Source: Kiritimatiellia bacterium (GTDB lineage Bacteria > Verrucomicrobiota > Kiritimatiellia > RFP12 > UBA1067). From it: a stretch of DNA of 64,000 nt. Location of the stretch: NCBI GenBank assembly GCA_045600365.1, contig JAZRXT010000156.1:3516-67515 (forward strand), in the 5' to 3' direction. The position numbers and the translations under genes are program-made. Shown piece after piece: positions 12,506 through 30,620 of the stretch. Below the pieces are notes generated by a model, which had not been told where the DNA came from, ran no database searches, and worked only from the letters and a program-made list of their open reading frames with translations. The first letter of the stretch is position 1; every line of letters begins with the position of its first letter.

Positions 12506-15500
12506 CTACTTCAGGCTCCTGATTTCGTCCTCGGCGAAGACGGCACGTTTGTTCTGATGGTAGTTGAATATGAGCCTGTCCTCCGCAGACCAGTCGGTGG
12601 CCTCGGCATAGGATCCGACGAACGGCACCGCAAGATCGATCCAGCAGGCGAATAGCCGCTTCTCCTCCTCCTTCAGCAACACGCCGTGATGGGATGGTTC
12701 GAGGTAGTTCATGATCAAGCTCTTCGCCGATCCCTGCGCATACGGCGGCAGCATGGCGGAGCGCCCCGCATTCGAATACCAGGAGAGCATCTTCCTCTGC
12801 CTCCCGTTCTGCGTGAGCGAAAGATACGACTGCGAAAAACGCCGCCGCGATCCGCGCTTGAACTCCGGCACGGGCTTGCCGGTGAAGTCTGGACGCGCCT
12901 TGGCCTTCTCGGAACCATCATGGCACTTCACGCAGTGCGCGTCCAGAATGGGCTGGATGCGCTGCACGAAGCTGAAGCCCTCGACGACGGCGTCAGGATC
13001 GTCCGACCGCGGCGCATTCACGCCGAGGTAGTTGGACACAGAGCCGAGGATGCCATCCTTGTCGAGTCGCGCCAGCAGCGGATGCGGATTCTGTCCCGGC
13101 GCCGGACGCAGACGCTGCACGCTCACGGGACGACGTGTGTAGCCGCCGGGGAACACCTGCGTCTTGTCCTCATGGCATCCCACACAGGACGCCTCCTCGC
13201 CCGGCCGCACCGTGACCCAGCTGCGCATCGTCTGCACGGTGCGTCCGCGCGCATCGAGCGCCTGGAAATAGACCCCGTTGTTCGCCGGACATTCGAAGTA
13301 GCAGCTGCCGTCCTCATTCACATCCACCTCACCCAGCACGTGCTTGACGTCCCACGTGCCGATCGCGCTGATTACCTCGCCGCGGCCATCGTCGCCCGGA
13401 TGCGAGACGAGACTGTTGATTGCCGGATCGCAGTCCTTCGGCCACGGGCTATCGTCCTCCTTGTGCAGGAATGCTGGACGCGACTCGATGGCGACCACCC
13501 GCAGCTTCTTCACCGTGCCGCGCGGTATCCCCTTCAATCCCTCGCCGACATGGATGTCGGCGACATAGAAGCGTCCGTATGCCTCATTCCACTTGATCGA
13601 GGATACGCGCGGCACCGCCGTTCTGCGCGGCGCAACCGCCACCGGCTGGCACGCCCCCAGCATGGGGTCGTAAGCAAGCAGTTCGCGCTCGCCTTCCGCG
13701 TTCTGCCAGTAGATGCCGAACTGCGGGTCCGCCGCCCATTTGTCGATGAGCGAACCTTCAGGGAGGAAGGCGGTCACCCATTCCGTCTCGCCGAGCGGCC
13801 ACGGATGCGCCCATTGCGCACCGATCTGCCCGAATGCGTCGACGTGCTTCTCGGTAAGAAGTTCGGGAACGGCGTAGTGCGAGGCGACGCAGCCGGGCTT
13901 TTCCTCCATCGACGAGCCGGACACGAATTCAAGGGCGCTGTCGCCATTGAGTCCCTTGCGACGATCGATCGTGATAAGTTTGCCCTTCTGGTTCACGTGG
14001 TGCCCGGACGCAATGGCGATGACCTTCGGCGAACCGGGTATCTGCCGCGCGTGGAAGATCGCGCTCGGGAAGAACGAGTCCGCACCGTAGTAGGCCTCCT
14101 GCTTCGTGCCGTCCCAGTTCATCGTGAAGAGCGTCTGCTGGAAACGCGCATTGCGGTCGTTGTATTCCCAGCGCGTGTAGATGATGCGCCCGTCGTCGAG
14201 TTCCTGCGGATAGAGGCTGGACGCGCCGTCGAAGCTCACCCGCCGCAGATGGCTACCATCGGGATCGCAGACGTAGAGGTTCACGTAGAGTTCCTGATGG
14301 CACGGCACCACGGATTCGCAGCGTGTCGACTCGAACACGATCTTGTTCGCGCCCGTCCAGACCGGCTCGGTATCGGCGCAGGGCAGGATCTCTCCCGGCA
14401 GTTTCACACCCTTGACCTCGCGCGAAATCCGCGCGGGCGGCGAGAACGTGATCTGGCGGAGTTCGCGCGTGTCGAGGTTCATCGTCCACAGGTGGAAGTC
14501 GTCGCCCTCGCGCGCGAGGTACGAATCCCACGGCAATGCGTCGGGATAGTCGGTCATGAACCGGTGCGGCACGTAGTACTGGTTGAGATTGTAGCTGTCG
14601 CGCATCGAGAAGACGGGCATGCGCCCATCGGGCGACAGCGCGGGATCGCGGATGCAGCCCTCGGGCCGCGCCAGCAGCACCTCGTTGGATACGGTGCCAT
14701 CCGGATGGATCGTGAGCAGACAGAGCTCGCCGCCCTTCGTCCAGTTCTTCGGGCGCGAGTCGATGAGATCGTCGGTCTGATAGACCGTGCTCGAATGCGG
14801 CGAGTCGCTGCCGAAGACAAAGTGCTTCACGTAGACGAACCGCGGCGTCTTCGCGGCCAGACTGGCAAGGCGCACCTTCCGCCGTTCTGCGCATAGCTTG
14901 AAGTAGGCAGCCCGGAGGGCGGGATCATCAGGCCGGAGGTTTTTCAGCTCGGGAGGGAGCGTGCGGCCCACCGACTTCGCCACCTTCTCCAGCACGGCCA
15001 GCGCCCGGGTGTTGTCTGCGCCCGGCGCGAACACCGAAACGAAGTTGTCGATCCCCGCGTCCTGCATGAGCCAGTCCTTTTCGAGACGGCTGGAAGGATA
15101 GGCGAGACCATTCGCAGTCTTCACGGGGAAATCGGCGGGGCGTGCATCGAAGAGGGATATCTCGGCGATATCAACCGCATCAAGGTATTTATCGTCGCCG
15201 CCGTATGGATGGCCCCAGATGTCGCAATGCGTCTTCTGCAGCCACCGACCAAAGATTGAACGTTCGTTGATGGCAGTGGCGCCGGTCTTGTGGATGTCGA
15301 GGCGAAGATAGCGCGCCTTCGTCTTCGGCCATTCCACAAAGGCGGAGTCACCGCAAAAAACTACGGGCAGCGAAACGCACTTCGGCGTGAGAGGGCGTGG
15401 ATGCGCGCCGTCTATCGAGTCCACGGCACAGACGGTCACTTCTGCGGGCAGTCTTCCCAGCCAGCGAGATGGCTGCGCGACCAGGCGCATGCCGGTCGTT

Positions 15501-15760
15501 TCGCGTTCGGCACCCAAATCGAACGTGAGGTTGAGCCGCTTCTCGCGTACGGACAATGTCGCGAACGTCGTGGGATTGCCGTCGTGCAGCGCCGCCATGC
15601 CATGCCCGTCCACCTCCGTGCCCCACGGCTTCACGGTCAACGGCATGAACTCGCCTCCGGCGCACGTAGCCGCAGCCAGCGCAAAGATCATGAACAGATC
15701 GAGACTCGTCGTTCGCACGATTCGATCAGACAATTTGTGGAGCAATGCTTTGTTTGCCAT
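12506..15760 (-). CDS. Secreted TolB/PD40-like beta-propeller protein with C-terminal planctomycete-type cytochrome c domains (two CXXCH)
   Basis: ATG at 15760 (MANKALL...LDLFMIFALAAATCAGG signal). An alternative TTG start is at 15805. Propeller repeats are visible (LSPDGRMPVFSMRD, GSHLRRVSFDGASSLYP, DGTKQEAYYGADSFFPS). The CXXCH motifs are ASCVGCHEDK and AHCVKCHDGS, followed by a PSCyt-like tail KRLFACWIDLAVPF. Confidence 0.55.
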   Translation of the reverse strand: MANKALLHKLSDRIVRTTSLDLFMIFALAAATCAGGEFMPLTVKPWGTEVDGHGMAALHDGNPTTFATLSVREKRLNLTFDLGAERETTGMRLVAQPSRWLGRLPAEVTVCAVDSIDGAHPRPLTPKCVSLPVVFCGDSAFVEWPKTKARYLRLDIHKTGATAINERSIFGRWLQKTHCDIWGHPYGGDDKYLDAVDIAEISLFDARPADFPVKTANGLAYPSSRLEKDWLMQDAGIDNFVSVFAPGADNTRALAVLEKVAKSVGRTLPPELKNLRPDDPALRAAYFKLCAERRKVRLASLAAKTPRFVYVKHFVFGSDSPHSSTVYQTDDLIDSRPKNWTKGGELCLLTIHPDGTVSNEVLLARPEGCIRDPALSPDGRMPVFSMRDSYNLNQYYVPHRFMTDYPDALPWDSYLAREGDDFHLWTMNLDTRELRQITFSPPARISREVKGVKLPGEILPCADTEPVWTGANKIVFESTRCESVVPCHQELYVNLYVCDPDGSHLRRVSFDGASSLYPQELDDGRIIYTRWEYNDRNARFQQTLFTMNWDGTKQEAYYGADSFFPSAIFHARQIPGSPKVIAIASGHHVNQKGKLITIDRRKGLNGDSALEFVSGSSMEEKPGCVASHYAVPELLTEKHVDAFGQIGAQWAHPWPLGETEWVTAFLPEGSLIDKWAADPQFGIYWQNAEGERELLAYDPMLGACQPVAVAPRRTAVPRVSSIKWNEAYGRFYVADIHVGEGLKGIPRGTVKKLRVVAIESRPAFLHKEDDSPWPKDCDPAINSLVSHPGDDGRGEVISAIGTWDVKHVLGEVDVNEDGSCYFECPANNGVYFQALDARGRTVQTMRSWVTVRPGEEASCVGCHEDKTQVFPGGYTRRPVSVQRLRPAPGQNPHPLLARLDKDGILGSVSNYLGVNAPRSDDPDAVVEGFSFVQRIQPILDAHCVKCHDGSEKAKARPDFTGKPVPEFKRGSRRRFSQSYLSLTQNGRQRKMLSWYSNAGRSAMLPPYAQGSAKSLIMNYLEPSHHGVLLKEEEKRLFACWIDLAVPFVGSYAEATDWSAEDRLIFNYHQNKRAVFAEDEIRSLK

Positions 15761-15819
15761 GATTGATCTTCCCCGTATGGTTGATTCCTCGTTCAGCCGC
15801 TTCAAAACTCTCTCCAGAT

Positions 15820-15848
15820 AGTATAACTGATTCGTCCCCGCCTGTCAA
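15820..15848 (-). promoter_or_regulatory. Consensus sigma70 promoter TTGACA-17-TATACT upstream of the 12506..15760 gene
   Basis: The minus strand reads tggtaTTGACAggcggggacgaatcagtTATACTatctgg. The plus-strand positions are tgtcaa at 15843-48 and agtata at 15820-25. Confidence 0.5.
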
Positions 15849-15862
15849 TACCAAATAACGAA

Positions 15863-18800
15863 TTACGATATTTCCGCGGGAGGCAGAAAGAACTCGTGGA
15901 AATGGTGCCACTGGGAAGGATGCCGAAGCGTCTCCTCTTCAAGGAACGAAACATATTCCTCCAGCATTCTGCGTCTCGCGGCATGGACGGCTGACCGACT
16001 GGCGACGGCTACGGTGGAGGCATCTGTAACGAACTGGCGGAAATGCACCTCCCACAATTCACGCCCCACTTTGACGCAGGTGAAGAAATACACCGGCGCC
16101 CCAACCAGATCGGCAAACGCGAAGACCCCAAGCGGCCACCTCGCGTCACGGCCCATGAAAGAACAGACATCGCGGTTCGACCGCGCTCTCGCCGGAGTCG
16201 TCCGGTCGCCCGCCATCAACACTAGCTCGCCTCTTCGGACGGCGTCCTGCATGTCCACCGCAGTCTCAACGCCGATATCCTCGGTGGAATGGAGCACAAA
16301 GGCGTCGACGTTGAAATGGCGCTGCACCATTCGCGTGAATTCTGTATCGTGCCCGAGGTGCTGAAAGGCATGGACGCGCGCGCGTCTTGATCCCGCGCCC
16401 CGGTCGAGCGCCGATAGCATTTCCGCGCATCCGAGATGCGATGAGACCAAAAAGGCGCCCCTACCGGAGTCCAGCAGATCTCGCAACGACCGCCAAGCAC
16501 CGTCATCCCGCGCCGTCACCCGCGGCAACGACCGCCGCAGCGTACAGGCGTCCGTCTTGTCCACAAGAGTCCAGGCATACTCCAGTAGATGCCGAAACAA
16601 TCCGAACGTGCCAGCGCGTTTTCCACCATAGGCGGAAAGCGTCGCGTAGAAACTGCGCAGGGCCAGCCGGGCAGGCCGCGCAAAAGGATAGACGAACAGC
16701 ATCACCAGTAGAGTCAATGCCTTAACGGCACGTTTCCCCAGATGAGAATACACCCACCACATCAGCGCCAGCCGGAATCGACTGGCGCTCTGCTCGCGCT
16801 GAGCGTACCATGCCGTCTCCGCCGTAGCCGGCGATGTTCTGGAACCATCCGAGGAAAACGCCCTCGCGAACAGATACGAGAACGCCAGCGCCAGCGCGAA
16901 GACCACGCCCATGGAGCGCGTGACCGGAAAGGAGGTCAGTGCCAATGCGCCAAGCCCGACAAAGCTGGTGAGGAAGGAGGCCGTGACCGCGCGCAAGGTT
17001 GAGCGCGACGGGCTGCCGGCCCAGAAAATCGCATAATCCACGCCCAACCCCACCACGATGAAGAAGCAGAGCGGATGAAAGAAGGTCATCTTCACCCCGC
17101 ACCATCCCAGCAGACCCGCCGTGGCGGAGATCGCGCACGCAACCGGGAGGATGTACTTCGGGAAACGGCGGCGGAACAGCCCCACGAGCACAATCGCCAT
17201 CACCAGAACCGACGCCCCCAGCAGACGATACGTCTCATTCGCATGCCGATCGAAAAACGCCGTCAACTCCACCTGTGGATTGAAACGCCTGACACCTGGG
17301 GACGAGCGCTCATCCATCCGGCTTCCAGGGGTCTCCATACCCATCAGGAAGGTTCTTCCGCCCCTTTGAGCCAGCATTGGCGACAGCAGTCTAGACATGA
17401 ACTGGTTCTCCATCGCCTCCTGTGGCGAGAGGAGGCGTTCCCGCGATGGCATCGGCACCTTCAAGCCCGTCTTGGCGGAGTAGTCGCCACCGCGCTGCCT
17501 GCAGAACTCGGCCACCATGAGCGCGTTCTCGCGCTGTCGCTTCAGTGAGGGCACAATAGACGACACCCCCCGCAGGCCAGCGGCCTCCTCGCGTTCCAGC
17601 GCCTCCTGGATGTCGCCGCCCTCAGTGACGGCATATTCGCCTGTGGACATCCCCAGTGAAGCAAGCAACCGTTCACCGGCCAGCAGCGTCGACGGCGGCC
17701 TGTAGAACGAGGCGGGGCCATTGTCGGTCCTGAGAAAGACGACTCCGCCGGCGCAGAAAAGCACCAGAGCGGCGGCGATCCAACGCTGCCAGGGACGGGC
17801 GCGCTGCACCGGCACCCCGTCGGCTGCGGCCTTCGGTCTGCGTCCCCAAGCGCACACCATCAGGAAGCAGAAGACGCCCACCAGCCCCACGGTGGTGAAA
17901 AGCGCCATCTGCCGCAGCACCAGGACGGAGGAGAAGAAAAGCGGAACGAAGCCGGAGAGCGTGGTCGCGAGCGCATGGAGAATCTTGCGACGCACCTGCG
18001 CCTGCTCGTCCCCGGCAGCCAGAATATGATACACGTAGTCAACGCCAAGCCCGATCAGCGAAGTACCGAAGACGAACGTGAGCACATGCGGACGTGACGG
18101 GCAGGCGAAAAGAGCGGCCGTACCGGCAAGCGAGCCGCAGGCCAGCGCGGCAAGCAACAGGGGGACAAACGCGAAGGAACCGAGAAGCACGCGGCCAATC
18201 GACAGCACGGCAAGGATCGAGGCCCACGACAGCACGGCGATCTCGCGCATGGACCGCGTTCGCGCAAGGGCAGAATGGAAAGGCGCACCACAGGGATATG
18301 CCCGTACCGGTCCATTCTCCGCATTGAAGATGCGAACGCGCTCAAGGACGTCCAGCATTCGCTTCACCCCTGCGGAATCAACCTTGCATGTCCCCTCCAG
18401 TAGCACGAAATGATGGCCGTCGCGCTCCATTGTCGGCAACCCATTGCGCATTGACCAGGGCGGCACGGCGCCTTCGGCGAGGTCCATGAACCATATGGTG
18501 CCGAGCATGAACGGATCGCCGCGCAGCGGGAAAACCGGGGGAACGACACCGGAAAAGAGCAGCGACAGCGACTCCTTCTCGACCTCGGCGTAGTTCCGCT
18601 GCAGCAGGTTGGTGCGGGTAGATTCGGCGAGCAGTCCATCGCGCCGTGAGGCGAGGAAATCGACCGCCGCCGCGATTCCATTGTCCGCCGCCGCATCCGG
18701 CTGGACCAGCGGGCGCAGACGCACCGCCGCCGCGTCCACGGCGGTGGCGGAATCGCCTTCCAGCAGCAGTCGCATTCGCGATGACTGGACGGAGGACAGC

Positions 18801-18946
18801 GCGGCGAGCGCATCGGCGCCGTCGGTATCCATAAGCGCGTTGACGTCGGTCTCGACCCCGCGTCCGCAGCGCAATGCCATCACGCACGCGGCGCCTGCCA
18901 TTGCGGTGACCAGCGCCGCCAGGCGCGCCTTGCGAGGGAACGTCAT
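15863..18946 (-). CDS. Fusion protein: MMPL/RND-like predicted exporter (COG4258-type) + C-terminal lysophospholipid/lipid-A-type acyltransferase (LPLAT, LpxL/HtrB-like)
   Basis: This is a continuous 1027-aa ORF. The N-terminal ~780 aa carry 12 TM helices and large periplasmic loops, like APE-cluster exporters. The C-terminal ~250 aa carry SSHLGCAEM (the H-x4-D/E acyltransferase motif) and an LpxL-like core. The ATG at 18946 has SD GGAGAAGGA and overlaps the LolA-like stop (ATGA). Confidence 0.65.
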   Translation of the reverse strand: MTFPRKARLAALVTAMAGAACVMALRCGRGVETDVNALMDTDGADALAALSSVQSSRMRLLLEGDSATAVDAAAVRLRPLVQPDAAADNGIAAAVDFLASRRDGLLAESTRTNLLQRNYAEVEKESLSLLFSGVVPPVFPLRGDPFMLGTIWFMDLAEGAVPPWSMRNGLPTMERDGHHFVLLEGTCKVDSAGVKRMLDVLERVRIFNAENGPVRAYPCGAPFHSALARTRSMREIAVLSWASILAVLSIGRVLLGSFAFVPLLLAALACGSLAGTAALFACPSRPHVLTFVFGTSLIGLGVDYVYHILAAGDEQAQVRRKILHALATTLSGFVPLFFSSVLVLRQMALFTTVGLVGVFCFLMVCAWGRRPKAAADGVPVQRARPWQRWIAAALVLFCAGGVVFLRTDNGPASFYRPPSTLLAGERLLASLGMSTGEYAVTEGGDIQEALEREEAAGLRGVSSIVPSLKRQRENALMVAEFCRQRGGDYSAKTGLKVPMPSRERLLSPQEAMENQFMSRLLSPMLAQRGGRTFLMGMETPGSRMDERSSPGVRRFNPQVELTAFFDRHANETYRLLGASVLVMAIVLVGLFRRRFPKYILPVACAISATAGLLGWCGVKMTFFHPLCFFIVVGLGVDYAIFWAGSPSRSTLRAVTASFLTSFVGLGALALTSFPVTRSMGVVFALALAFSYLFARAFSSDGSRTSPATAETAWYAQREQSASRFRLALMWWVYSHLGKRAVKALTLLVMLFVYPFARPARLALRSFYATLSAYGGKRAGTFGLFRHLLEYAWTLVDKTDACTLRRSLPRVTARDDGAWRSLRDLLDSGRGAFLVSSHLGCAEMLSALDRGAGSRRARVHAFQHLGHDTEFTRMVQRHFNVDAFVLHSTEDIGVETAVDMQDAVRRGELVLMAGDRTTPARARSNRDVCSFMGRDARWPLGVFAFADLVGAPVYFFTCVKVGRELWEVHFRQFVTDASTVAVASRSAVHAARRRMLEEYVSFLEEETLRHPSQWHHFHEFFLPPAEIS

Positions 18947-19395
18947 CTATCCTTCTCCGCCACGTCGCGACGAACAAGCTCCACATCAAGCCGGTCCCCA
19001 TTGCGGAACTTGACCACAACCTGGCGGGGGAAGGCATCACTGGGAATGCATTCGACATCCTTCACCAGTTCGCGAACCTCCTTAATGGCGAATATCCCCG
19101 CGATTGACGAGACATCGTTGGCAAGCGGCTGGGAGCGAACGCGCCCGTTGGCGCTAAACGTCCAGTTGGTGGGAGTGGCGATGAAGCTGCTGGGCACCGG
19201 TTCCACGGTGTTCCATTCGAAGCTGCGATCGCGCTCGAAGCGGAACGTTCCCTTCGACGTCAGCGTAACCCCAACGTCGGCCAGAACGCGACGCTGCACG
19301 AAATCGCCATGCGCCGACTTGGGCATGGAGGGCGTCGCCGCCATCAGGGCCGACCCACCAAGTGCGGTCAGAAGGAGAAAGTGCCTGACGAGCAT
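18943..19395 (-). CDS. LolA-like outer-membrane lipoprotein carrier family protein (secreted)
   Basis: Signal peptide MLVRHFLLLTALGGSALMAATPS. It is ~150 aa with a beta-rich LolA-like pattern. It sits in the position of the LolA-like gene of aryl-polyene clusters. Confidence 0.5.
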   Translation of the reverse strand: MLVRHFLLLTALGGSALMAATPSMPKSAHGDFVQRRVLADVGVTLTSKGTFRFERDRSFEWNTVEPVPSSFIATPTNWTFSANGRVRSQPLANDVSSIAGIFAIKEVRELVKDVECIPSDAFPRQVVVKFRNGDRLDVELVRRDVAEKDR

Positions 19396-19709
19396 ATCGT
19401 ATCTCCCTTGCAGAACGTGTACGAAACGGAATTCCCGGCGTCGGACGCGAGCTTCAGCGTCACCTGCTCGTCAGGGACGATCGGGCGCATGAACTTCATC
19501 TTCCGCACCATCTGGGGCACAAGGCGGCGACCAAGCAGCCGTTCGGCAAAATGGTGGGCAACGCCCAGCTGGACCACGCCCGGGAGCAGCGGACAACCAT
19601 CGAAATGCCCCTTGAAGAATTCGGCCGATGGGGGAAAAGACACCACCACCTCCATCCCACTCTCGGTGCGAACCGGATTCGACGCGGAGAACTCCTCAAT
19701 CCTCACCAT
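19368..19709 (-). CDS. FabA/FabZ-like hot-dog fold dehydratase (or thioesterase)
   Basis: FKGHFDGCPLLPGVVQLGVAHHF matches the FabZ active-site signature FxGHFPxxPvmPGVL. The protein is 113 aa. Confidence 0.65.
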   Translation of the reverse strand: MVRIEEFSASNPVRTESGMEVVVSFPPSAEFFKGHFDGCPLLPGVVQLGVAHHFAERLLGRRLVPQMVRKMKFMRPIVPDEQVTLKLASDAGNSVSYTFCKGDTICSSGTFSF

Positions 19710-21090
19710 CGAACATCCTCCTCAGTTCATCCGCCAGAACCTTGCCCTGCGCGTTGCGCGGAATCTCGTCGACGAAGCGGAAGCGCCTGGGCACGGTGCC
19801 ACGGGGAAATATCGGGAGCAGCAGGCTGCGCATCTCCAGAGGCGTTCGCCGTTCACCAGCCACCACCGCGCCAAGCATGGTGCCAAGCGGAGCGTCAAGA
19901 GTCACCAGCGCGGCCATGCGCACGCCAGGAAGTCCCCGCATCTTCGCCTCCATCTCGGGAAGGGACACCCTCTCGCCGTTGATCTTCGCCATGCGGTCGA
20001 GACGGTCGAGCAAACGGAACGAACGCGCGTCCGGTGAAAGCTCAACCCCGTCGCCCATGGTGTACACGCGTCGGTACGAAAATGGCGAGCGTACCACCAG
20101 GCGACCATCCTCGGCAGTGGAGACGCGCACTTGGTCGAATACGCGCCATTCGCATTTCTGGGGCGAGGCGCCATCCTGTCTGCGCCAGGCGACCCCGCCC
20201 GTCTCGGTGCTGCCGAAGATCTCCAGCGGCGCAATGCCGAACATGCGCCTGGCGGCGGCGCTGGTCTCTGCATCGAGCAGCGAGCCGCTGGTGACCACCT
20301 CCACCGCATTGCGGGGGATTTCATACTGGCCGGCGTAGCGCGCGAGGCGGGCGAGAAAGGGAGGCGTGGTCACAAGCACCACGTGCTCGGCGCGGCGCAT
20401 GGCGCCGATCAGCTCCTCCGGCGAGGCGATGACGGCAGGATGGACCGCGCACCCGGAGACAGACGGCAGCAGCTTCCGCCACAGGACGCCGTATAGGTGG
20501 CCGGGATCTATCGTGGCGAGGAAGAGCGGTCTGTCGCGCAGAACATCTGCCAGGCGCCGATGGTGCATTGCCGTTTCAAGCGCAAGCGTACGAAAGGTCT
20601 TGACAATCCGTTTCGGCTTCGCCGTCGAACCCGAAGTGTGGAACACGGACGAAAACCTTCGCCGACGCACCAGCCATTCGATGCCGACGATCACGCCCGT
20701 GGCACAGTAGGAGAGAATGCAGTTCCACAGCACCCAGGCGGCGGGGATCTCAACTGTGCCGCCGCCGATGCGCCAGACCGGGCCGGGCATGAAGATAGTG
20801 CCCACTGCGATCAGCGCGTTGATGCAGAGCCACACGGTCCAGAACAGCGTATACCGCCGACAGTACGGTTCGGCGCCCGGCGGAAGAATGTGGGGTGGAA
20901 TCACGCGCGCCAGCGCGAGGCAGAATGGTTCAGGGCCCAGCAGACTCGAACCGAAGACCGTCGCCATGCCGAGGCTCATCGTCACCGGGTACCACGCCAG
21001 TGCCGTGAACTTGCGGGTGAGAACCACGACCAGGATGCAGACCGCAAGAATCGCAAAGGCCGTACCGCGACATTTGAAGGGATTCTTCAC
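19696..21090 (-). CDS. Fusion: N-terminal 4-TM membrane domain + AMP-dependent ligase (acyl/aryl-ACP synthetase-type adenylation domain)
   Basis: The N-terminal ~150 aa are hydrophobic (AFAILAVCILVVVL, LFWTVWLCINALIAVGTIF). The adenylation motifs VFHTSGSTAKPKRIV (A3), GSTETG (A5) and NAQGKV (A10) follow. A GTG start is assumed at 21090, since the first in-frame ATG is 37 codons in. Confidence 0.6.
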   Translation of the reverse strand: MKNPFKCRGTAFAILAVCILVVVLTRKFTALAWYPVTMSLGMATVFGSSLLGPEPFCLALARVIPPHILPPGAEPYCRRYTLFWTVWLCINALIAVGTIFMPGPVWRIGGGTVEIPAAWVLWNCILSYCATGVIVGIEWLVRRRRFSSVFHTSGSTAKPKRIVKTFRTLALETAMHHRRLADVLRDRPLFLATIDPGHLYGVLWRKLLPSVSGCAVHPAVIASPEELIGAMRRAEHVVLVTTPPFLARLARYAGQYEIPRNAVEVVTSGSLLDAETSAAARRMFGIAPLEIFGSTETGGVAWRRQDGASPQKCEWRVFDQVRVSTAEDGRLVVRSPFSYRRVYTMGDGVELSPDARSFRLLDRLDRMAKINGERVSLPEMEAKMRGLPGVRMAALVTLDAPLGTMLGAVVAGERRTPLEMRSLLLPIFPRGTVPRRFRFVDEIPRNAQGKVLADELRRMFDGED

Positions 21091-21116
21091 GGCAGATGTC
21101 GGGGTATGGCCGCGGC

Positions 21117-21365
21117 CTAGTCGGCAAGCAGCTTCTTCACGGCCGCTGTGACATCGGCAAGCGTACGGATCTGACGGAATTCCTCGGGATTGACCTTGCG
21201 TCCAGTCTCCTGCTGGAGGCGAACGACCAGATCGACGGCGTCGATCGAATCAAGATCAAGATCGGAGAACAGATTCACCTCGGGGACGAGACGGGCAGGA
21301 TCGCATTCGAAATCCTTGACGAGGATTTCCTTGATCTTGGCCTCGATTTCAGCTTCGGAGATCAT
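21117..21365 (-). CDS. Acyl carrier protein (dedicated, second of a tandem pair)
   Basis: It is 82 aa with the phosphopantetheine-site motif DLDLDSIDAVDLV. The ATG directly follows the TGA of the upstream ACP. Confidence 0.8.
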   Translation of the reverse strand: MISEAEIEAKIKEILVKDFECDPARLVPEVNLFSDLDLDSIDAVDLVVRLQQETGRKVNPEEFRQIRTLADVTAAVKKLLAD

Positions 21366-21638
21366 TCAGCCGACCTCTCCCTTCTGCGCCGCTATGAAGT
21401 CGGCAATAGTCGACACACTGCGGAAAACGGCCTTGTTCTCGGCGGGGTCCTGCGAGAATACGACATCGAAGCGCTTCTTCACGGCCATGCCGAGTTCAAG
21501 CGCGTCGATGGAGTCAAGGCCGAGCCCCTCACCGAAAAGCGGAGCGTCGGCCTCGATGTCTTCGGGGGAGACGCCCTCCAGATCGAGGGCGTTCACCACG
21601 ACGGATTTAAGCTCCGCGACTATCTCGTCGCGAGTCAT
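21366..21638 (-). CDS. Acyl carrier protein (dedicated, first of a tandem pair)
   Basis: It is 90 aa with LGLDSIDALELGMAV. The ATG at 21638 overlaps the secDF stop (ATGA). Confidence 0.8.
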   Translation of the reverse strand: MTRDEIVAELKSVVVNALDLEGVSPEDIEADAPLFGEGLGLDSIDALELGMAVKKRFDVVFSQDPAENKAVFRSVSTIADFIAAQKGEVG

Positions 21639-24199
21639 TTACCCTCGGCGGAATCCGTGAACTGGGGACGACGGCCCTTGTAGTACCACATCATCACCGG
21701 GGTGGCGACGAACATGGAGGAGAAGGTGCCGGCGATGACGCCGATGAGCATCGTGAGCGCGAAGTCGAAGATCGAGCCGTCGCCGAAGGCGAAGAGCGCG
21801 AGCACCGCGAAGAACGTCGTGATGGACGTGATCACCGTACGGGAGAGGCACTCGTTGAGCGCGCGGTTGCAGAGCTCCTTGAAGCCAGTCTTCTGGTCGC
21901 GGCGCAGATCCTCGCGGATGCGGCCGAAAACGACGATCGTGTCGTTAACCGAGTAGCCGACGATCGTCAGCAGCGCCGTCACGACGAGCAACGAGACCTG
22001 ACGCCCGCAGAGCGAGAAGAGGCCGAGCGAGATCAGCACGTCATGCGCAAGGGCGACGAGCGCGCCGAGGCCAAAGCCGAACTCGAAGCGGAAGCCGACG
22101 TAGATCAGAATCGCGCAGAGCGAGAGGACGACCGCCCAGGTACCGGAGGTCTTGAGGTCCTTGCCGACCATCGAACCCACCTCGTCGACCGAGATCTGCT
22201 TGACCTGTGCGTCCTTGAAGTTGTCCTGCAGCAGCTTCGTCACGTGCGCACCGACATCCGTCACGCCCTTGTCCTTGGCGTTTTCGGCCGTGTAGCCGGT
22301 CTTGACGAGCAGCGTGGAGTCGCCCACGCCCTCCTGATACTGGATGATCGTCGCGTTGTCGAACGGGTCGAGCACCTTGCGCACGTCGCCGACCGCAGGC
22401 TTGGCCTTCTGGTCGACGGAGAAGACGAGCGAGGTGCCGCCGGTCAGGTCGACGGCCAGAACCGAGGCCGGCTTGACCACGGCGCGGATGCCGAAGATGG
22501 CGACCGTTATGACGCAGACCGTGAAGGCGGAGATGGCAACGACCTTGCCAAGCTTGACGAAGTCAACATTCGGGGCCTTCTTGAAGATGTTGAGCATCTT
22601 GAAGGGCTTGGAAAGTTCCGCCTTCGTGGTGTTGTCGAACACGAGGCGGGTGACGACCACGGCCGTGAACATCGAGATGATGACGCCGGCGGTGAGGGTG
22701 ATCGCAAAGCCGCGCACGGGGCCGGTGCCCACGATGAAGAGGATGATGCCGGTGACGATCGTCGTGATGTTGGAGTCGAGAATCGCGGTGAAGGCGCGGC
22801 CGTAGCCGTTCTTCAGCGCGGTGCCGACCGTGGCCTTGGCGGCGAACTCCTCGCGGATGCGCTCGAAGATGATCACGTTCGCGTCCACGGCCATGCCGAG
22901 GGTGAGCACGAGACCGGCAATGCCGGGCATCGTCAGCACCGGCAGCTGCAGCGAGCCGGTGGCGCCCATCGAAGCGTCCTTCGCGAAGACGCCCAGCACG
23001 TTGGCGACGAACACCAGCGCGGCCGGAAGGAGCGCAACGTCGAGGAAGAGCGCGATGTCGGCCACGAGACCGGCATACCAGTAGTAGATGAACATGAAGA
23101 GCGCGACCAGCGAGAAGCCGAGAGCCGCGGCAACGAGGCCGGCGTGCTTCGCATCCTCACCCACAGTGGGCGAAACGGAGGATTCGGCAAGGAGCTTGAG
23201 CGGCGCAGGAAGAGCGCCGGCGTTGAGCTCGTTGGCGAGCTGCTGGGCCTCGGCCGCGGTGAAGTGACCGGTGATCTGGCCATGCGCACCGATCTCGCTC
23301 TGGATGACCGGGGCGGAAACGAGCGTGTCGTCGAGGATGATCGCCAGCTGACGACCACGGTCGGAGGGGTTCTTCGGGCCATGCGCCACATAGTTGCGCG
23401 TGACGTCGGAGAAGAGCTTGGCACCCTTCGCATTGAAGGAGAAGCTGATGGCGAGCGAACCGGCGGCATCGCGCTCGACGCCGGCCGAAGTGAGGTACTC
23501 GCCGGTGATCGGCTGCGGCTCGCCCTTTGCGTTGCGCGTAGGGGCGCTGCGGCTCACGAAAGCACCGCGATAGGAGCCGTCGCTTCCCTTCTCGAGCATG
23601 AACTGGTAGCGGGGATCGGGCGTGTGGAAGGAGGCGAGACGGGCGGCATAGCCCTTCTGGCTGGCGATCTTTTCGTAATCCGCCTTACGGACAAAGCCGG
23701 CGCCGCCGCGCTCGTATCCTTCGGGGCAGGCCTCGGTGGACATCAGCTTGTTGACGAGCTCGTCATTGCGCGGATGGGTGAGACGGAACTCAAGGAAGGC
23801 AGCAGACTGCAGCGACTTCTTGGCGGCGGCGCGGGTGGCCTCGTCGATGCCGGGAAGCTGCACCAGCAGGCGGTGGTCCTTCATTCCCTGGATCACCGGC
23901 TCGTTCATGCCCATACCATCGACACGGCGACGGACAACCTGGATGATGCGCGAGTCGCAACCCTGCAGCGTATCGGCAATCTTCTTGTCGATCTCCGCCA
24001 CGTCATTGGAGATGGCAGGATTGGCGGCGATGATCGTCTCGCGCAGCTTATCCTGATCCACGTCAAGCGTGAAGGACGTTCCACCCTTCAAGTCAAGGCC
24101 GAAACGAAGCTTCTGCGCCACCGGGAAAGTGACGTATATAGAAAACACGGCGATGATCAGCAAAGCCAACCACTTCCAGACATCATTGCGAGTATTCAT
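21635..24199 (-). CDS. secDF: Protein translocase subunit SecDF (fused SecD-SecF)
   Basis: It is 854 aa. The SecD periplasmic domain, the TM bundle (GLDLKGGTSFTLDV...) and a SecF-like second half are present. SD AGAGGTAAAG. Confidence 0.9.
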   Translation of the reverse strand: MNTRNDVWKWLALLIIAVFSIYVTFPVAQKLRFGLDLKGGTSFTLDVDQDKLRETIIAANPAISNDVAEIDKKIADTLQGCDSRIIQVVRRRVDGMGMNEPVIQGMKDHRLLVQLPGIDEATRAAAKKSLQSAAFLEFRLTHPRNDELVNKLMSTEACPEGYERGGAGFVRKADYEKIASQKGYAARLASFHTPDPRYQFMLEKGSDGSYRGAFVSRSAPTRNAKGEPQPITGEYLTSAGVERDAAGSLAISFSFNAKGAKLFSDVTRNYVAHGPKNPSDRGRQLAIILDDTLVSAPVIQSEIGAHGQITGHFTAAEAQQLANELNAGALPAPLKLLAESSVSPTVGEDAKHAGLVAAALGFSLVALFMFIYYWYAGLVADIALFLDVALLPAALVFVANVLGVFAKDASMGATGSLQLPVLTMPGIAGLVLTLGMAVDANVIIFERIREEFAAKATVGTALKNGYGRAFTAILDSNITTIVTGIILFIVGTGPVRGFAITLTAGVIISMFTAVVVTRLVFDNTTKAELSKPFKMLNIFKKAPNVDFVKLGKVVAISAFTVCVITVAIFGIRAVVKPASVLAVDLTGGTSLVFSVDQKAKPAVGDVRKVLDPFDNATIIQYQEGVGDSTLLVKTGYTAENAKDKGVTDVGAHVTKLLQDNFKDAQVKQISVDEVGSMVGKDLKTSGTWAVVLSLCAILIYVGFRFEFGFGLGALVALAHDVLISLGLFSLCGRQVSLLVVTALLTIVGYSVNDTIVVFGRIREDLRRDQKTGFKELCNRALNECLSRTVITSITTFFAVLALFAFGDGSIFDFALTMLIGVIAGTFSSMFVATPVMMWYYKGRRPQFTDSAEGK

Positions 24200-25311: not shown

Positions 25312-26787
25312 ATGGCGCATCTTGTCAGGAACGCAGTGGCGCTGGCGCTGGTGACGCTTCCGGCCATGGCGATTGCCTGGTTTCAGGGAACCACGACCGA
25401 AAACGTGGCGGTGGCGGCACCCTGGGTAATTGGTTCATTTCTTACCGCGACCTTCCTGCTTCCTCAGCAACGCCCGGCCGAGACATTCTTCGGCACCTTC
25501 AAGCGCTCCATTTACCTTATTCTGCGCGACCCCGCCATCTACCTAGCGCTGGCCTTCATCGCACTTCTGGGCATTGCGCTGTTCAACCCGGCACTCTGCC
25601 CCTCCTGCGACTGGGAGGCGATTGACGCCGGTGCCAATCCATATCCGCGCTGGCGGGCACTACCCTTCTGCGTCAACCTCCCCGAGCACCGCATGGTCAT
25701 CCTCCACTTCGCTCAGGTTCTGGCCTGCGCGCTGGCGGTGCGGCATGCCCTCACCCGGGATGGTAAACGGGCATTCTTCGAGGCAATGGTCTGGAATGGG
25801 GCCGCACTCGCCCTGTTCGGCTTCGTGCAGATGGCCTTCGGCGCCAAGGCGCCGTTCTGGCGGGAGTGCGCCCACCCGGTGCACTTCTTCTCGGTGTTCG
25901 GCTATCCCAATCACGCCGGTGCCTTCTTCACGCTCGCCTACGCCTGCTCGCTGGGGCTATGGTGCCTGCGCATGGAGAAGGCCGCCTCGCGCTCGATCGA
26001 CGATTCCCCGCTCCGCCACCCGCTGATAGCCCGTCACTACCCCCTGCCCGCCGTAGCGCTCTCGATGTTCGCGGTGCTCGCCACGCTGAGCCGCGCGGCA
26101 ATGTTCCTGAGCGTGATCCTCACGTTTCTGTTCATGGGGCGCACGGCGCTGGTGTCGATCTCGCGCAGAAGCCGGTCGCTGCGCGCCACCGCCATCTCGG
26201 GGATCGTGCTCATGCTGGCGCTGATCGGCGCCATCTTTGTCTATGCCCCGCCGGAGGTTGGCAGGGAGCTGGCCACGCTGAACCTGCGGGCGCTGGCGGA
26301 CCGCACCTCCGGGCGCGCCCAGTACCACAACCGCATCGCCACCTCGATCATGCGCGACTTCCCGTTCTGCGGCGTCGGTGGCTGGGGCTACCGCCACTTC
26401 GCCCGCTCCTACATGACCGAGGCCGAAAGCGCCCACGCCCAGATCGACGGTGGCGCCAACGTGCACAACGACTATCTCCAGTTCCTGGCCGAACACGGCC
26501 TTGCTGGTTTCGCGTTGCTGGCGGCATGCATATTCCTGCTGGTGAAACCGGTGGCGATCAAATGGCGCGACACCGTGGCCCGCGAACGATTCTCGGAGAA
26601 GACCGTCATCATGAAGCCCGTGGCGGTATTCGCCGTGGAGCCCACAGTGTTCCTGGGAGCGCTCGGCTGCGTCGCCATCTTCGTACACGCATTCGGGGAC
26701 TGTCCCCTGAGATCGACGGCGGTGTTCACATGTCTGCTGTCGGCTCTGGCCGCGCTGATAGGATTCCTCCCACACGATCGGCACTAG
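25312..26787 (+). CDS. O-antigen ligase / Wzy_C-family polytopic membrane protein (WaaL/PglL-like)
   Basis: About 12 TM helices. The Wzy_C-type motifs are LATLSRAAMFLSVILTFLF and DNDYLQFLAEHGLAGFALL (the H-containing loop). SD GAGAGGAG. Confidence 0.6.
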   Translation: MAHLVRNAVALALVTLPAMAIAWFQGTTTENVAVAAPWVIGSFLTATFLLPQQRPAETFFGTFKRSIYLILRDPAIYLALAFIALLGIALFNPALCPSCDWEAIDAGANPYPRWRALPFCVNLPEHRMVILHFAQVLACALAVRHALTRDGKRAFFEAMVWNGAALALFGFVQMAFGAKAPFWRECAHPVHFFSVFGYPNHAGAFFTLAYACSLGLWCLRMEKAASRSIDDSPLRHPLIARHYPLPAVALSMFAVLATLSRAAMFLSVILTFLFMGRTALVSISRRSRSLRATAISGIVLMLALIGAIFVYAPPEVGRELATLNLRALADRTSGRAQYHNRIATSIMRDFPFCGVGGWGYRHFARSYMTEAESAHAQIDGGANVHNDYLQFLAEHGLAGFALLAACIFLLVKPVAIKWRDTVARERFSEKTVIMKPVAVFAVEPTVFLGALGCVAIFVHAFGDCPLRSTAVFTCLLSALAALIGFLPHDRH

Positions 26788-28668: not shown

Positions 28669-29775
28669 ATGGTAAACCACGAATCACTCATCAAGCACCT
28701 TACCGTAACCGGTCCGGGCAAGTTCGGCCTCGTATCGCAGCAGGCCTCATCGACCGCGGGAATTCTCTTCAACACGCTTGGCGACAGGATGAGCGCGCTC
28801 TTCTCGCCTGAGCACGGATGGTTTGGTCTGGCGGCGGCAGGCGAGAAGACGGAAGGCGCCATTCACCCCTACTGGCGGATACCCGTGCACTCCCTGTATG
28901 GCGAGACGCGCAAGCCGACACCGGAGATGCTCGACGGTCTCTCGCGCCTCGTGGTGGACCTCCAGGACATCGGCGTCAGATGCTACACCTATCTGGCAAC
29001 GCTGAAGCTCGTGCTCGAGGCGGCGACGGACGCAGGACTACCAGTCACCGTGCTGGACCGCCCCATTCCCCTGGGTGGTATTGTCGACGGCCCCGGGCGA
29101 ACCATGGAATTCGCATCCTTCGTCGCCCCGCTGGACATTCCCCTCTGCCATGGCATGACCCCAGGCGAGTGCGCGAAGTACATCGTACGCGAGCAGCGCC
29201 TCGACCTTGACCTCACCGTCATCAAGATGAAGGGCTGGAGCCACTCCTCGCGCAATCCCTGGCCGAACTTTGTTCCACCCTCCCCCGCCATCCGCAGCTG
29301 GGATTCCGCCGCCCTCTATCCCACCACCGTCTTCACCGAGGCGTATCCGGCCCTCGACTGCGACCGCGACGGCCCGCTCGCCTTTCGCGTGCTGGGTGCC
29401 CCGTGGATCGAAGCCGCTGCGCTGCTCGACGATTTCAGCGAGCTTCTGCCATCATGCGGAATGGGTGCGAGACCAATCAAGTACCGCCCTGTGGGCGGAC
29501 GCTACGCCGGCATGCTGCTTGATGGACTGCTCTTCTCGATCGAGCAGCCGGACGCCTTCTATCCCGTCACTGCGGGGGCACTGGTCTTCGCCTCTCTCTG
29601 GAGGCGCCACCGCAACGACCTGCGCGTCGATGCAAGACCGGAGTGGATGGACAAGCTCACTGGCTCCACCCGACTGCGCGAATCGCTTCACGGCGATGCG
29701 CTCAACCAACTGCTACAGACCTGGATCGAAGAGCAGGAGCCCTACCTGGAGAAGAAGGTCGACCTCTACTGCTGA
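28669..29775 (+). CDS. DUF1343-family protein (NamZ-like exo-beta-N-acetylmuramidase-type)
   Basis: FSPEHGWFG and LVVDLQDIGVRCYTYLATL match the DUF1343 signature (PEHG...D[IL]QDVG.R.YTY). Confidence 0.6.
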   Translation: MVNHESLIKHLTVTGPGKFGLVSQQASSTAGILFNTLGDRMSALFSPEHGWFGLAAAGEKTEGAIHPYWRIPVHSLYGETRKPTPEMLDGLSRLVVDLQDIGVRCYTYLATLKLVLEAATDAGLPVTVLDRPIPLGGIVDGPGRTMEFASFVAPLDIPLCHGMTPGECAKYIVREQRLDLDLTVIKMKGWSHSSRNPWPNFVPPSPAIRSWDSAALYPTTVFTEAYPALDCDRDGPLAFRVLGAPWIEAAALLDDFSELLPSCGMGARPIKYRPVGGRYAGMLLDGLLFSIEQPDAFYPVTAGALVFASLWRRHRNDLRVDARPEWMDKLTGSTRLRESLHGDALNQLLQTWIEEQEPYLEKKVDLYC

Positions 29776-30620
29776 TCTGGACGGACCGGCGCCGGGGGCA
29801 GTCCGGAATCGAAACCGACGATCGCGATGCCGAGACGATTCGCGTATTCGACCACTCGCTCACGTTCCAGGAGCAGTAGTCGCCCGGCCTGGAAGCCAAG
29901 CGCCGTCACACCGGCGCGCTTCATGGTCTTGAGCGTCTTCAGGCCCACAACCGGAATGTCGAAGCGCATATCGTGTCCGTCACGGGCTCCCTTCACCAGC
30001 ACGGCCCCGCGTCCGCCCAGACGCCCACCGCGCTTGATTGCGGCGTTGGTGCCCTCGAACGCCTCGACGGCCAGCGTCATTCCGTCCTTTACCAGGACAG
30101 TCTGCCCCACGTCATGGCGGCCCATGTCGCGCATGACCACCGAACCATGCGCAATGTCGCGCGCCTCGCGTTCGTCGGGAGTCCGCATGGTAAGAACACC
30201 GACGCCGGGGAGGTGGCGCTCCATGAACGACGAGGCAGGAAGCACCCTTGCACCAACCTTCTCGAGTTCAGCGGTCAGCTTGCCGTAGATCGTGTGCGCC
30301 GTCTTGCAGGGAAGGGACGCGAGCCAGGAACGGGACTCCTCGTCGAAGCGTGTGCGAAAGAGGGAGAGCGGGCTTATCTGCCCAGCGAAAATGCAGCCAT
30401 CGTATTTCTGCTCTCCAACCCACCGCACGCCCGAGGCGATCTCGCCGAGTCCATGCACGTGCACATGGTCGGCCGCACGGCAGGTGGCGCGCTCCGCCGA
30501 ACCGCGCACGGCAAGCACATCGACCGTGGCAACGCCAGCAGCGCGGGCACCCTCGACGACCAGCCGCGGATATTCCCCGGCGCCGGCCAATACGACTATC
30601 CTTGATGGCAGATATGACAT
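29766..30620 (-). CDS. lpxI: LpxI-family UDP-2,3-diacylglucosamine diphosphatase (DUF1009)
   Basis: IVVLAGAGEYPRLVVEGARAAG at the N-terminus and VLVKGARDGHDMRFDIPVVGLKTLKTMKRAGVTALGFQAGRLLLLE match the LpxI pattern. SD AGGAAGTG. Confidence 0.6.
   Translation of the reverse strand: MSYLPSRIVVLAGAGEYPRLVVEGARAAGVATVDVLAVRGSAERATCRAADHVHVHGLGEIASGVRWVGEQKYDGCIFAGQISPLSLFRTRFDEESRSWLASLPCKTAHTIYGKLTAELEKVGARVLPASSFMERHLPGVGVLTMRTPDEREARDIAHGSVVMRDMGRHDVGQTVLVKDGMTLAVEAFEGTNAAIKRGGRLGGRGAVLVKGARDGHDMRFDIPVVGLKTLKTMKRAGVTALGFQAGRLLLLERERVVEYANRLGIAIVGFDSGLPPAPVRPDQQ

Follow-up and report, generated by a model that had tools for sequence, protein, structure and literature searches.

An ApeM-like RND exporter and a putative ApeJ-type acyltransferase encoded as one polypeptide in a Kiritimatiellia bacterium

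Aryl polyene (APE) clusters have been described among the most widespread families of bacterial biosynthetic gene clusters, while the finishing of the APE lipid and its transfer to the outer membrane are still proposals only (10.1101/2020.12.19.423268; PMC8253772). In the scheme proposed from work in Xenorhabdus and Escherichia coli, ApeH loads an aryl starter on ApeE, ApeJ glycosylates a lipid anchor and then acylates the sugar with ApeE-bound APE as the final assembly step, and transfer of the lipid to the outer membrane falls to ApeM, acting with the Lol-like ApeL and ApeN (10.1101/2020.12.19.423268; PMC8253772). The present analysis concerns 64,000 nucleotides of DNA from a Kiritimatiellia bacterium (contig JAZRXT010000156.1, positions 3,516 to 67,515; hereafter the window), in which a single open reading frame (ORF) joins an ApeM-like RND exporter to an acyltransferase domain resembling the C-terminal half of ApeJ. 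Both component types and the pathway are already known, and what is new is the architectural variant that joins them.

In known APE clusters the two components belong to separate genes, as the initial annotation of the window had stated. E. coli ApeM shares with the exporter domain its plan of 12 transmembrane (TM) helices, its homology and an adjacent LolA-like gene, but it is a stand-alone protein of 772 residues that has no acyltransferase domain. The acyltransferase of these clusters is found in ApeJ (E. coli CFT073 WP_000115634.1, 558 residues), where it follows an N-terminal GT2 glycosyltransferase domain of 245 residues and the protein is annotated as GT2; the C-terminal half of ApeJ is homologous to residues 713-1027 of the fusion, in which the domain is joined to the C-terminus of the exporter instead, with no GT2 in the window. 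LpxL, LpxM and PatA (PF03279) have the fold in common with this acyltransferase, whose HX4E motif coincides with that of LpxM, but they are only 12-17% identical to it, and the gene context of the fusion is of APE type rather than that of lipid A or phosphatidylinositol mannoside synthesis. HpnN and MmpL3, MmpL4 and MmpL5 are the best structural matches to the exporter, with HpnN also the best profile match; small periplasmic domains are shared, whereas identity is 13-16%, the substrates differ and no acyltransferase is covalently attached.

Mycobacteria link synthesis and export in the pairs MmpL8/Chp1, MmpL10/Chp2 and MmpL7/PpsE, in which a functional tie exists between an RND exporter and the final acylation of its outer-membrane lipid. 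The mycobacterial partners are separate proteins with unrelated acyltransferase folds, and covalent fusion is seen only on the Kiritimatiellia side of the comparison. To our knowledge, coupling of synthesis to export has so far been discussed mainly for mycobacterial MmpL systems. A literature search returned no description of an exporter-acyltransferase fusion, although most subscription journals lay outside its reach and absence is not proof. The fusion proteins stand in public databases under no name or a generic one, for example 'hypothetical protein' or 'predicted LPLAT superfamily acyltransferase'.

The fused reading frame and its domains

The fused exporter-acyltransferase ORF is confirmed as real: it lies on the minus strand, a point that the initial annotation left unstated, and runs uninterrupted from ATG to stop over 1027 codons. 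The plus strand of the region has a strong excess of A over T, in keeping with a T-rich gene for a membrane protein on the opposite strand. The protein has three parts, an exporter, a short linker and an acyltransferase (Table 1). The initial annotation had proposed an MMPL/RND-like exporter fused to an LpxL/HtrB-type acyltransferase in one ORF, and the HpnN and ApeM profiles, the Foldseek matches and the PF03279 family bear this out. The order of the two domains holds as well, but not their lengths, which are about 700 and 315 residues rather than about 780 and 250. The junction had been placed at 16650-16750, an interval within the helical stretch at the N-terminus of the acyltransferase domain; the true junction, at about 16810-16850, is approximately 80 residues further upstream in the protein.

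The exporter domain shows the 1+5 / 1+5 helix arrangement of RND proteins, with large periplasmic loops after TM1 and TM7. Kyte-Doolittle hydropathy and an AlphaFold2 (AF2) model of the full protein, built on an alignment of 40 homologues with a mean predicted local distance difference test score (pLDDT) of 83.8, place TM1 at residues 9-27, TM2-6 at 233-365, TM7 at 389-407 and TM8-12 at 573-697. The loops comprise about 205 residues (28-232) and about 165 residues (408-572), so that the 12 helices and two large loops first noted from the sequence are recovered. Foldseek with the full-length model, which supports the RND fold, ranked HpnN (5khn, E=3e-16) best, followed by MmpL4/5/3, NPC1/NCR1 and Dispatched, and then by AcrB-type pumps. 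A profile of the 40 fused homologues matched HpnN in the PDB at E=1.3e-13 and MmpL4 weakly, and hhalign aligned the fused family with E. coli ApeM over residues ~95-700 (probability 99.9, E=1.6e-32); by tblastn, E. coli ApeM is 25% identical to its match in the window. The Pfam family PF03176 was matched by 18 of the 40 fused homologues. By profile and predicted fold, the domain is an RND-superfamily lipid exporter of the HAE3/MmpL/APE-exporter type.

Two Asp-Tyr pairs, one in TM4 and one in TM10, are candidates for the two halves of a proton relay. MmpL3 has Asp-Tyr pairs in TM4 and TM10, and the placement seen here matches the arrangement of the MmpL3 proton relay. The exporter is probably driven by protons. 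At TM10, E. coli ApeM has Asn-Tyr (GIGINY) in contrast with the invariant Asp-Tyr of the fused family.

The fold of the acyltransferase domain was obtained from a separate AF2 model of residues 707-1027 (pLDDT 86.8, predicted TM-score (pTM) 0.87). Its Foldseek matches are PatA (7ojt, E=1.9e-10, TM-score 0.72) and LpxM (5kn7, E=5e-10, TM-score 0.56), both well separated from the next fold. Against E. coli ApeJ residues 246-553, the acyltransferase family gave an hhalign probability of 99.8 (E=2e-29, 26% identity), and the alignment spans both the HLG-x-E motif and a C-terminal W-x-x-F-x-x-F signature. The motif SSHLGCAEM, singled out in the initial annotation, is present, and its HLGCAE core occupies residues 837-842 as a putative catalytic dyad of His837 and Glu842. 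In the 40 fused homologues H837 and G839 are invariant and E842 is kept in at least 90%, while the motif's H and E are invariant among 26 sequences that include stand-alone forms. The family profile aligns kGaflistHlGtiEv on LpxM KGVVLIVPHFGTWEV (E=0.007, motif region only), which sets the HX4E motif on LpxM HFGTWE, where the E127A structure 5knk carries its substitution. Profile searches thus do find a match to an HX4D/E family: PF03279 (Lip_A_acyltrans) was matched by 19 of the 40 family members at E<=0.01, the best at 4.3e-8. The domain is a putative acyltransferase of the LpxL/LpxM/PatA fold and of the ApeJ C-terminal type, as judged from these profiles and the model. The PlsC-type protein ApeD (PF01553) was considered as the fused partner and rejected, with an hhalign probability of 0.6 and no ApeD match in the window.

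The linker, SDGSRTSPATAETA in translation (nt ~16811-16852), is the variable segment at which the two domains meet. The AF2 model gives residues 701-720 a pLDDT below 50. The acyltransferase family starts at W713, and its stand-alone homologues begin 4-6 residues ahead of this tryptophan. Fused forms carry a linker of 12-30 residues that is absent from split forms.

Distribution and origin of the fusion

A word-indexed search of 5.8 billion proteins returned about 80 full-length homologues of 900-1140 residues, at 34-45% identity and more than 95% query coverage. A closer homologue, 83% identical and exactly 1027 residues long, comes from the independent Logan assembly SRR19135259 (contig L087), where the gene order is that of the window: two acyl carrier protein (ACP) genes, ligase, ApeI-like, LolA-like, fusion and a protein with an HZS_alpha domain. 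The two fusion genes align without gaps, and the ratio of nonsynonymous to synonymous substitution rates (dN/dS) is 0.14 in the exporter part and 0.18 in the acyltransferase part; in this comparison, both domains evolve under purifying selection. The linker of the relative, although only 40% identical (dN/dS 0.35), agrees in length and frame.

A pattern scan of one genome per GTDB species, in which reading frames were judged by stop-free-frame analysis, yielded 79 related loci. The exporter-acyltransferase junction lies in one frame in 43 of them, 41 without any frame break, so that the fusion recurs in many species as well as in independent assemblies, in line with the orthologue comparison suggested in the initial annotation. 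Nearly all in-frame loci come from gut, rumen or faecal metagenome-assembled genomes (MAGs) labelled Kiritimatiellae/Kiritimatiellia, 'Lentisphaeraceae' or 'Verrucomicrobia'. The record titles of a few contigs (L018, L028, L049, L050, L061) name Clostridiales bacterium CCNA10, Limosilactobacillus gorillae, Clostridium sp. CAG:138 or a Lachnospiraceae bacterium; these titles, on contigs with a Gram-negative outer-membrane system, are probably those of mislabelled metagenomic bins. One MAG, JAZRWB01, harbors two paralogous exporter-acyltransferase genes from different subclades (L041, L048), one solitary and one frame-broken, which suggests diversification of the family within genomes.

The acyltransferase domain alone was used in an exhaustive HMMER search of 1.84 billion cluster representatives (50% identity), giving 1594 matches at E<=1e-3. 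The best 150 of these consist of 32 exporter-acyltransferase fusions, some only 26-33% identical, 15 GT2-acyltransferase fusions and 103 free-standing proteins of about 300 residues. One acyltransferase module therefore occurs in three architectures: free-standing, GT2-fused and exporter-fused. In the canonical cluster of Thalassotalea (L084), the GT2 gene and the gene of the PF03279 acyltransferase are distinct and stand side by side.

Split versions are also present among the close relatives. Two loci (L006/L046) carry the exporter (687 residues) and the acyltransferase (338 residues) as separate genes in an operon that matches the fused locus L004, including both flanks (Ham1-like upstream, Mem_trans downstream). 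The stop and start of the split genes overlap by 8 nucleotides (ATGTCTGA), and the acyltransferase begins MSEAW..QREQSAG; given this overlap, a one-base indel would interconvert the split and fused states. In further cases one MAG carries the two genes on separate contigs (L042/L053, L050/L061, L051/L062, L066/L065), and one exporter operon has no adjacent acyltransferase (L001). A 'loosely linked' intermediate is seen in L005, in which a free-standing acyltransferase gene (10001-10909) is separated from a 616-residue exporter-like gene (14239-16089) by carboxylase-subunit and glycosyltransferase genes.

A neighbour-joining tree of the exporter domain, which is distance-based and rough, places Kiritimatiellae-type exporters in one clade (86/100 bootstrap) with split forms nested among the fused ones. 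Outside the clade are exporters encoded as separate genes in E. coli, Treponema, Thalassotalea, Bdellovibrionales, Deferribacteraceae, an alphaproteobacterial MAG and a Kiritimatiellia MAG (L057). The nesting of split forms suggests a single old fusion followed by several secondary fissions. A divergent fused copy (L064) also falls outside the clade, and with L064 in this position the tree leaves room for a second origin.

Operon content and neighboring genes

The fusion gene is the last of six in a co-directional block (nt 15863-21638) in the order ACP, ACP, ApeG+ApeH ligase, ApeI, LolA-like, fusion. When all 18 Ape proteins of E. coli (CFT073 APE cluster, L086) were compared with the window by tblastn, matches were limited to ApeE, ApeF, ApeG, ApeH, ApeI, the C-terminal half of ApeJ (26% identity) and ApeM. 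ApeG (residues 79-186) and ApeH (residues 134-448) align with parts of a single ligase gene, at nt 20659-21021 with 33% identity and at nt 19711-20655 with 32% identity, respectively. By tblastn and Pfam together, the attachment and export genes of APE clusters are present as homologues of ApeE, ApeF, ApeG, ApeH, ApeI, ApeL, ApeM and the ApeJ acyltransferase. The ORF of the LolA-like protein, which also has weak NCBIfam LolA/LolA2_flexi matches, overlaps the fusion start by 4 nucleotides at its stop, and a LolA-like gene lies directly upstream of the fusion in most related loci.

Table 1. Positions of the fusion, its parts and neighboring genes in the window.
Feature	Position	Strand	Evidence
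Fusion ORF, ApeM-like RND exporter + ApeJ-C-terminal-like acyltransferase	15863..18946	-	ORF, translation, homologues, dN/dS
RND exporter domain, residues 1-~700, 12 TM helices	16847..18946	-	hydropathy, AF2, Foldseek, profile, hhalign
Asp303-Tyr304, TM4, candidate proton-relay pair	18035..18040	-	invariant in 40 fused homologues; aligns with HpnN TM4 GLGVDF
Asp637-Tyr638, TM10, second half of candidate relay	17033..17038	-	invariant in 40 fused homologues
Variable, predicted-disordered linker (fusion junction), residues ~701-712	16811..16846	-	pLDDT, divergence, homologue starts, translation
Putative acyltransferase domain, LpxL/LpxM/PatA fold, ApeJ C-terminal type, residues 713-1027	15866..16810	-	AF2, Foldseek, hhalign
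HX4E motif HLGCAE, H837...E842, putative catalytic dyad	16421..16438	-	conservation, LpxM alignment
LolA-like protein, 150 aa, N-terminal hydrophobic leader	18943..19395	-	Pfam LolA 24.8 bits vs cut-off 23.6
ApeI-like hot-dog dehydratase, 113 aa	19368..19709	-	Pfam ApeI-like 37 bits vs cut-off 28.5; 39% identity to E. coli ApeI
ApeG-like membrane domain (N-terminal ~140 aa) fused to ApeH-like AMP-dependent ligase, 464 aa	19696..21090	-	Pfam AMP-binding, tblastn
Acyl carrier protein, ApeF-like, 82 aa	21117..21365	-	Pfam PP-binding E=2e-13; 49% identity to E. coli ApeF
Acyl carrier protein, ApeE-like, 90 aa	21366..21638	-	Pfam PP-binding E=1.7e-8; 52% identity to E. coli ApeE
SecDF gene	21635..24199		
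Protein with hydrazine-synthase-alpha middle domain, 1099 aa	12506..15805	-	PF18582 E=4e-28
O-antigen-ligase-like (Wzy_C) gene	25312..26787	+	
LpxI gene	29766..30620	-	
Distant FkbO/Hyg5-family chorismatase, 314 aa	45764..46708	-	TIGR04444 E=6.7e-16, near full length, far below cut-off; Pfam FkbO_Hyg5-like_N 26.7 bits and Ribonuc_L-PSP

The set of APE genes accompanying the fusion varies across related loci. A complete APE cluster surrounds the divergent fused copy (L064) and comprises a ketosynthase-dehydratase, a ketoreductase, a ketosynthase, a chain-length factor and ApeD. Three loci (L028, L033, L049) have a chain-length factor, an ApeD-like gene and a GT2 gene about 4 kb downstream of the fusion, and two (L002, L003) have only the LolA-like gene and the fusion. 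Other fusions of Ape genes are found in the lineage: ApeG, ApeH and ApeI form a single protein of 545-584 residues in most relatives (for example L004 7912-9591 and L006 5775-7529), and L064 has a ketosynthase fused to an ApeP dehydratase (ApeO+P, 10453-12018). The window and its 83%-identical relative instead have ApeH and ApeI in two ORFs with a 14-nucleotide overlap.

The secDF gene ends 4 nucleotides inside the start of the first ACP gene, and the APE-like genes appear to be co-transcribed with it; other loci have a Ham1-like gene in this place. Directly downstream of the fusion lies the gene of the protein with a hydrazine-synthase-alpha domain, which occupies the same position in L087. 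The O-antigen-ligase-like and LpxI genes indicate lipopolysaccharide (LPS) synthesis and an outer membrane in the organism, in keeping with a need for lipid delivery across the periplasm.

A chorismatase-like gene lies 27 kb from the operon. Chorismatases of the FkbO/Hyg5 family, such as XanB2, supply hydroxybenzoate for xanthomonadin, and by analogy the protein of the window could feed the ApeH-like ligase. Chorismate synthase genes also occur near the ACP, ligase and exporter genes in L001 (3048-4058) and L002 (18546-19589), in L001 together with 3-deoxy-D-arabino-heptulosonate-7-phosphate (DAHP) synthase and chorismate mutase/prephenate dehydratase genes. Such nearby chorismate genes may hint at an aromatic starter or may be a coincidence.

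Proposed function and its alternatives

The fusion is likely to be one inner-membrane polypeptide that unites two components of APE lipid attachment and export, an ApeM-type RND lipid exporter and the acyltransferase of the ApeJ C-terminus. In the mechanism that we favor, the ApeG+ApeH-like ligase would activate a carboxylic acid and load it on one of the two ACPs encoded upstream. The acyltransferase domain, located after TM12, is predicted to be cytoplasmic on the basis of the even number of TM helices that follow a Lys/Arg-rich N-terminus. From there it would move the acyl group, presumably from acyl-ACP as the donor, by means of His837 and Glu842 to an acceptor that may be the hydroxyl of a membrane (glyco)lipid. 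On the same polypeptide, the RND domain would then pull the finished lipid out of the inner membrane and hand it to the co-translated periplasmic LolA-like carrier, from which it would reach the outer membrane; the outward direction of transport and any kinetic coupling of the two activities are predicted in the same manner. Complexes of MmpL5 with AcpM (PDB 9dp6 and 9u51, both among the Foldseek matches listed) set a precedent for the docking of an ACP on the cytoplasmic face of an RND lipid pump. It is reasonable to infer that the fusion couples final acyl transfer to export.

Several observations weigh against this reading. The type II polyketide synthase (PKS) core (ketosynthase ApeO/R, chain-length factor ApeC, ketoreductase ApeQ, dehydratase ApeP) was absent from the 64 kb with either E. 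coli or Kiritimatiellae queries, as were homologues of the thioesterase, methyltransferase, ApeD, GT2 and ApeN. With the ketosynthase, ketoreductase, ApeP, thioesterase, GT2, ApeD and ApeN missing from the window, the product need not be an aryl polyene; since PKS genes can sit elsewhere in related genomes, polyene production by the source genome is not decidable from the window. The full-length AF2 model has a pTM of 0.61, at which the relative orientation of the two domains is not readable. The fusion protein on its own stays below the Pfam and NCBIfam thresholds for both domains. Pfam gave no family for the whole ORF at E<=0.01, and sub-threshold matches surfaced only once the ORF was split and the threshold relaxed; the acyltransferase domain misses the PF03279 gathering threshold (15.3 bits versus 22.3, E=0.011), and the exporter, too, falls under the cut-offs. 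As the single protein fails the Pfam cut-offs, the identity of its domains rests on family profiles and structure. Finally, split and even unlinked genes are common among the relatives, and covalent coupling is not required for function; this commonness indicates that the linkage is helpful rather than essential.

Alternative explanations of the ORF and of its role differ in probability. The chance that a sequencing or assembly indel removed a stop at the junction, and thereby merged adjacent exporter and acyltransferase genes, is negligible. Close syntenic relatives do have two genes with an 8-nucleotide stop/start overlap that a single-base indel would fuse, and the fusion gene is visibly broken in frame in several MAG loci (L067, L071, L075, L076, L083). 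However, the 83%-identical relative has the same 1027-residue ORF with a divergent, in-frame linker of equal length, 41 species-representative loci have uninterrupted fusions, the linker of fused forms is missing from split forms, and fused and nested split forms make up one clade with 86/100 bootstrap support. The independent assembly, the many in-frame loci and the distant fused cluster representatives exclude an artefact for practical purposes. An enzyme of late lipid A acylation, of the LpxL/LpxM type, tethered to a transporter to remodel LPS rather than to make an APE-type lipid, is very improbable. The domain does belong to the PF03279 'lipid A biosynthesis acyltransferase' superfamily, with the LpxM fold and the HX4E dyad, and LpxI and an O-antigen-ligase-like protein are encoded in the window and LpxK in L004. 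The relationship to ApeJ is nevertheless far stronger than that to LpxM (E=2e-29 versus E=0.007 in the motif region only), and the partner genes are homologues of ApeE, ApeF, ApeG, ApeH, ApeI, ApeL and ApeM, not lpx genes. Export of LPS runs through MsbA and Lpt and does not involve an RND pump paired with a LolA-like carrier, which also speaks against LPS remodelling.

Repair or scavenging of lysophospholipids in the manner of LplT-Aas is improbable. In this scenario the ligase would load free fatty acid on ACP, lysolipids would be re-acylated and the RND domain would deliver or remove the lipid. The operon does combine a ligase, ACPs, an acyltransferase and a transporter, the ligase has weak matches to the NCBIfam models of acyl-ACP--phospholipid O-acyltransferase / acyl-ACP synthetase (Aas), and no polyketide genes are found in the 64-kb window. 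But Aas has a PlsC-type acyltransferase (PF01553) and LplT belongs to the MFS family, whereas the fusion combines an acyltransferase of LpxL/PatA fold with an RND transporter that is an ApeM homologue. Hallmarks of APE clusters accompany it, namely a dedicated ACP pair, an ApeI-like hot-dog protein and a LolA-like carrier, and a fused copy sits in a full APE cluster (L064). An artefact, LPS remodelling and lysolipid repair are thus disfavored. A more serious, although still doubtful, possibility is that operon compaction in the lineage produced the fusion as a neutral by-product without functional effect on coupling. Many Ape genes are fused in these bacteria (ApeG+H in the window, ApeG+H+I in relatives, ApeO+P in L064), split forms are nested within the fused clade, and the two genes lie on different contigs in some genomes (L042/L053, L050/L061, L051/L062). 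Neutrality is countered by the persistence of the fusion across a divergence of 26-45% identity, and by the fusion of the acyltransferase domain in E. coli ApeJ to GT2, the other presumed partner in the pathway. That the same domain is fused to GT2 as well as to the exporter suggests that fusions track functional partnership.

The proposed union of attachment and export can be carried further, at the level of speculation and with the balance clearly against it, to a 'finish-and-eject' machine. The active site would feed the inner-leaflet entry of the RND domain, and the last acylation would gate export. In the clade of the window, whose operon would have lost the polyketide genes, the machine would decorate an outer-membrane lipid with a simple aromatic or fatty acid, possibly derived from the diet and loaded on ACP by the ApeH-like ligase.

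The conserved natural fusion of an exporter with a presumed last-step acyltransferase provides an argument from gene architecture that the two act together. It clarifies the acyltransferase partner in APE systems as the C-terminal half of ApeJ, not ApeD, and offers a single-polypeptide test-bed for the coupling of lipid synthesis to RND export, while its practical impact is limited until the product is identified. Should the 'finish-and-eject' proposal be true, the fusion would be Rosetta-stone evidence for a complex of the ApeJ acyltransferase and ApeM in all aryl polyene producers, and would point to outer-membrane lipids of gut and rumen Kiritimatiellae that form a class not recognised before.

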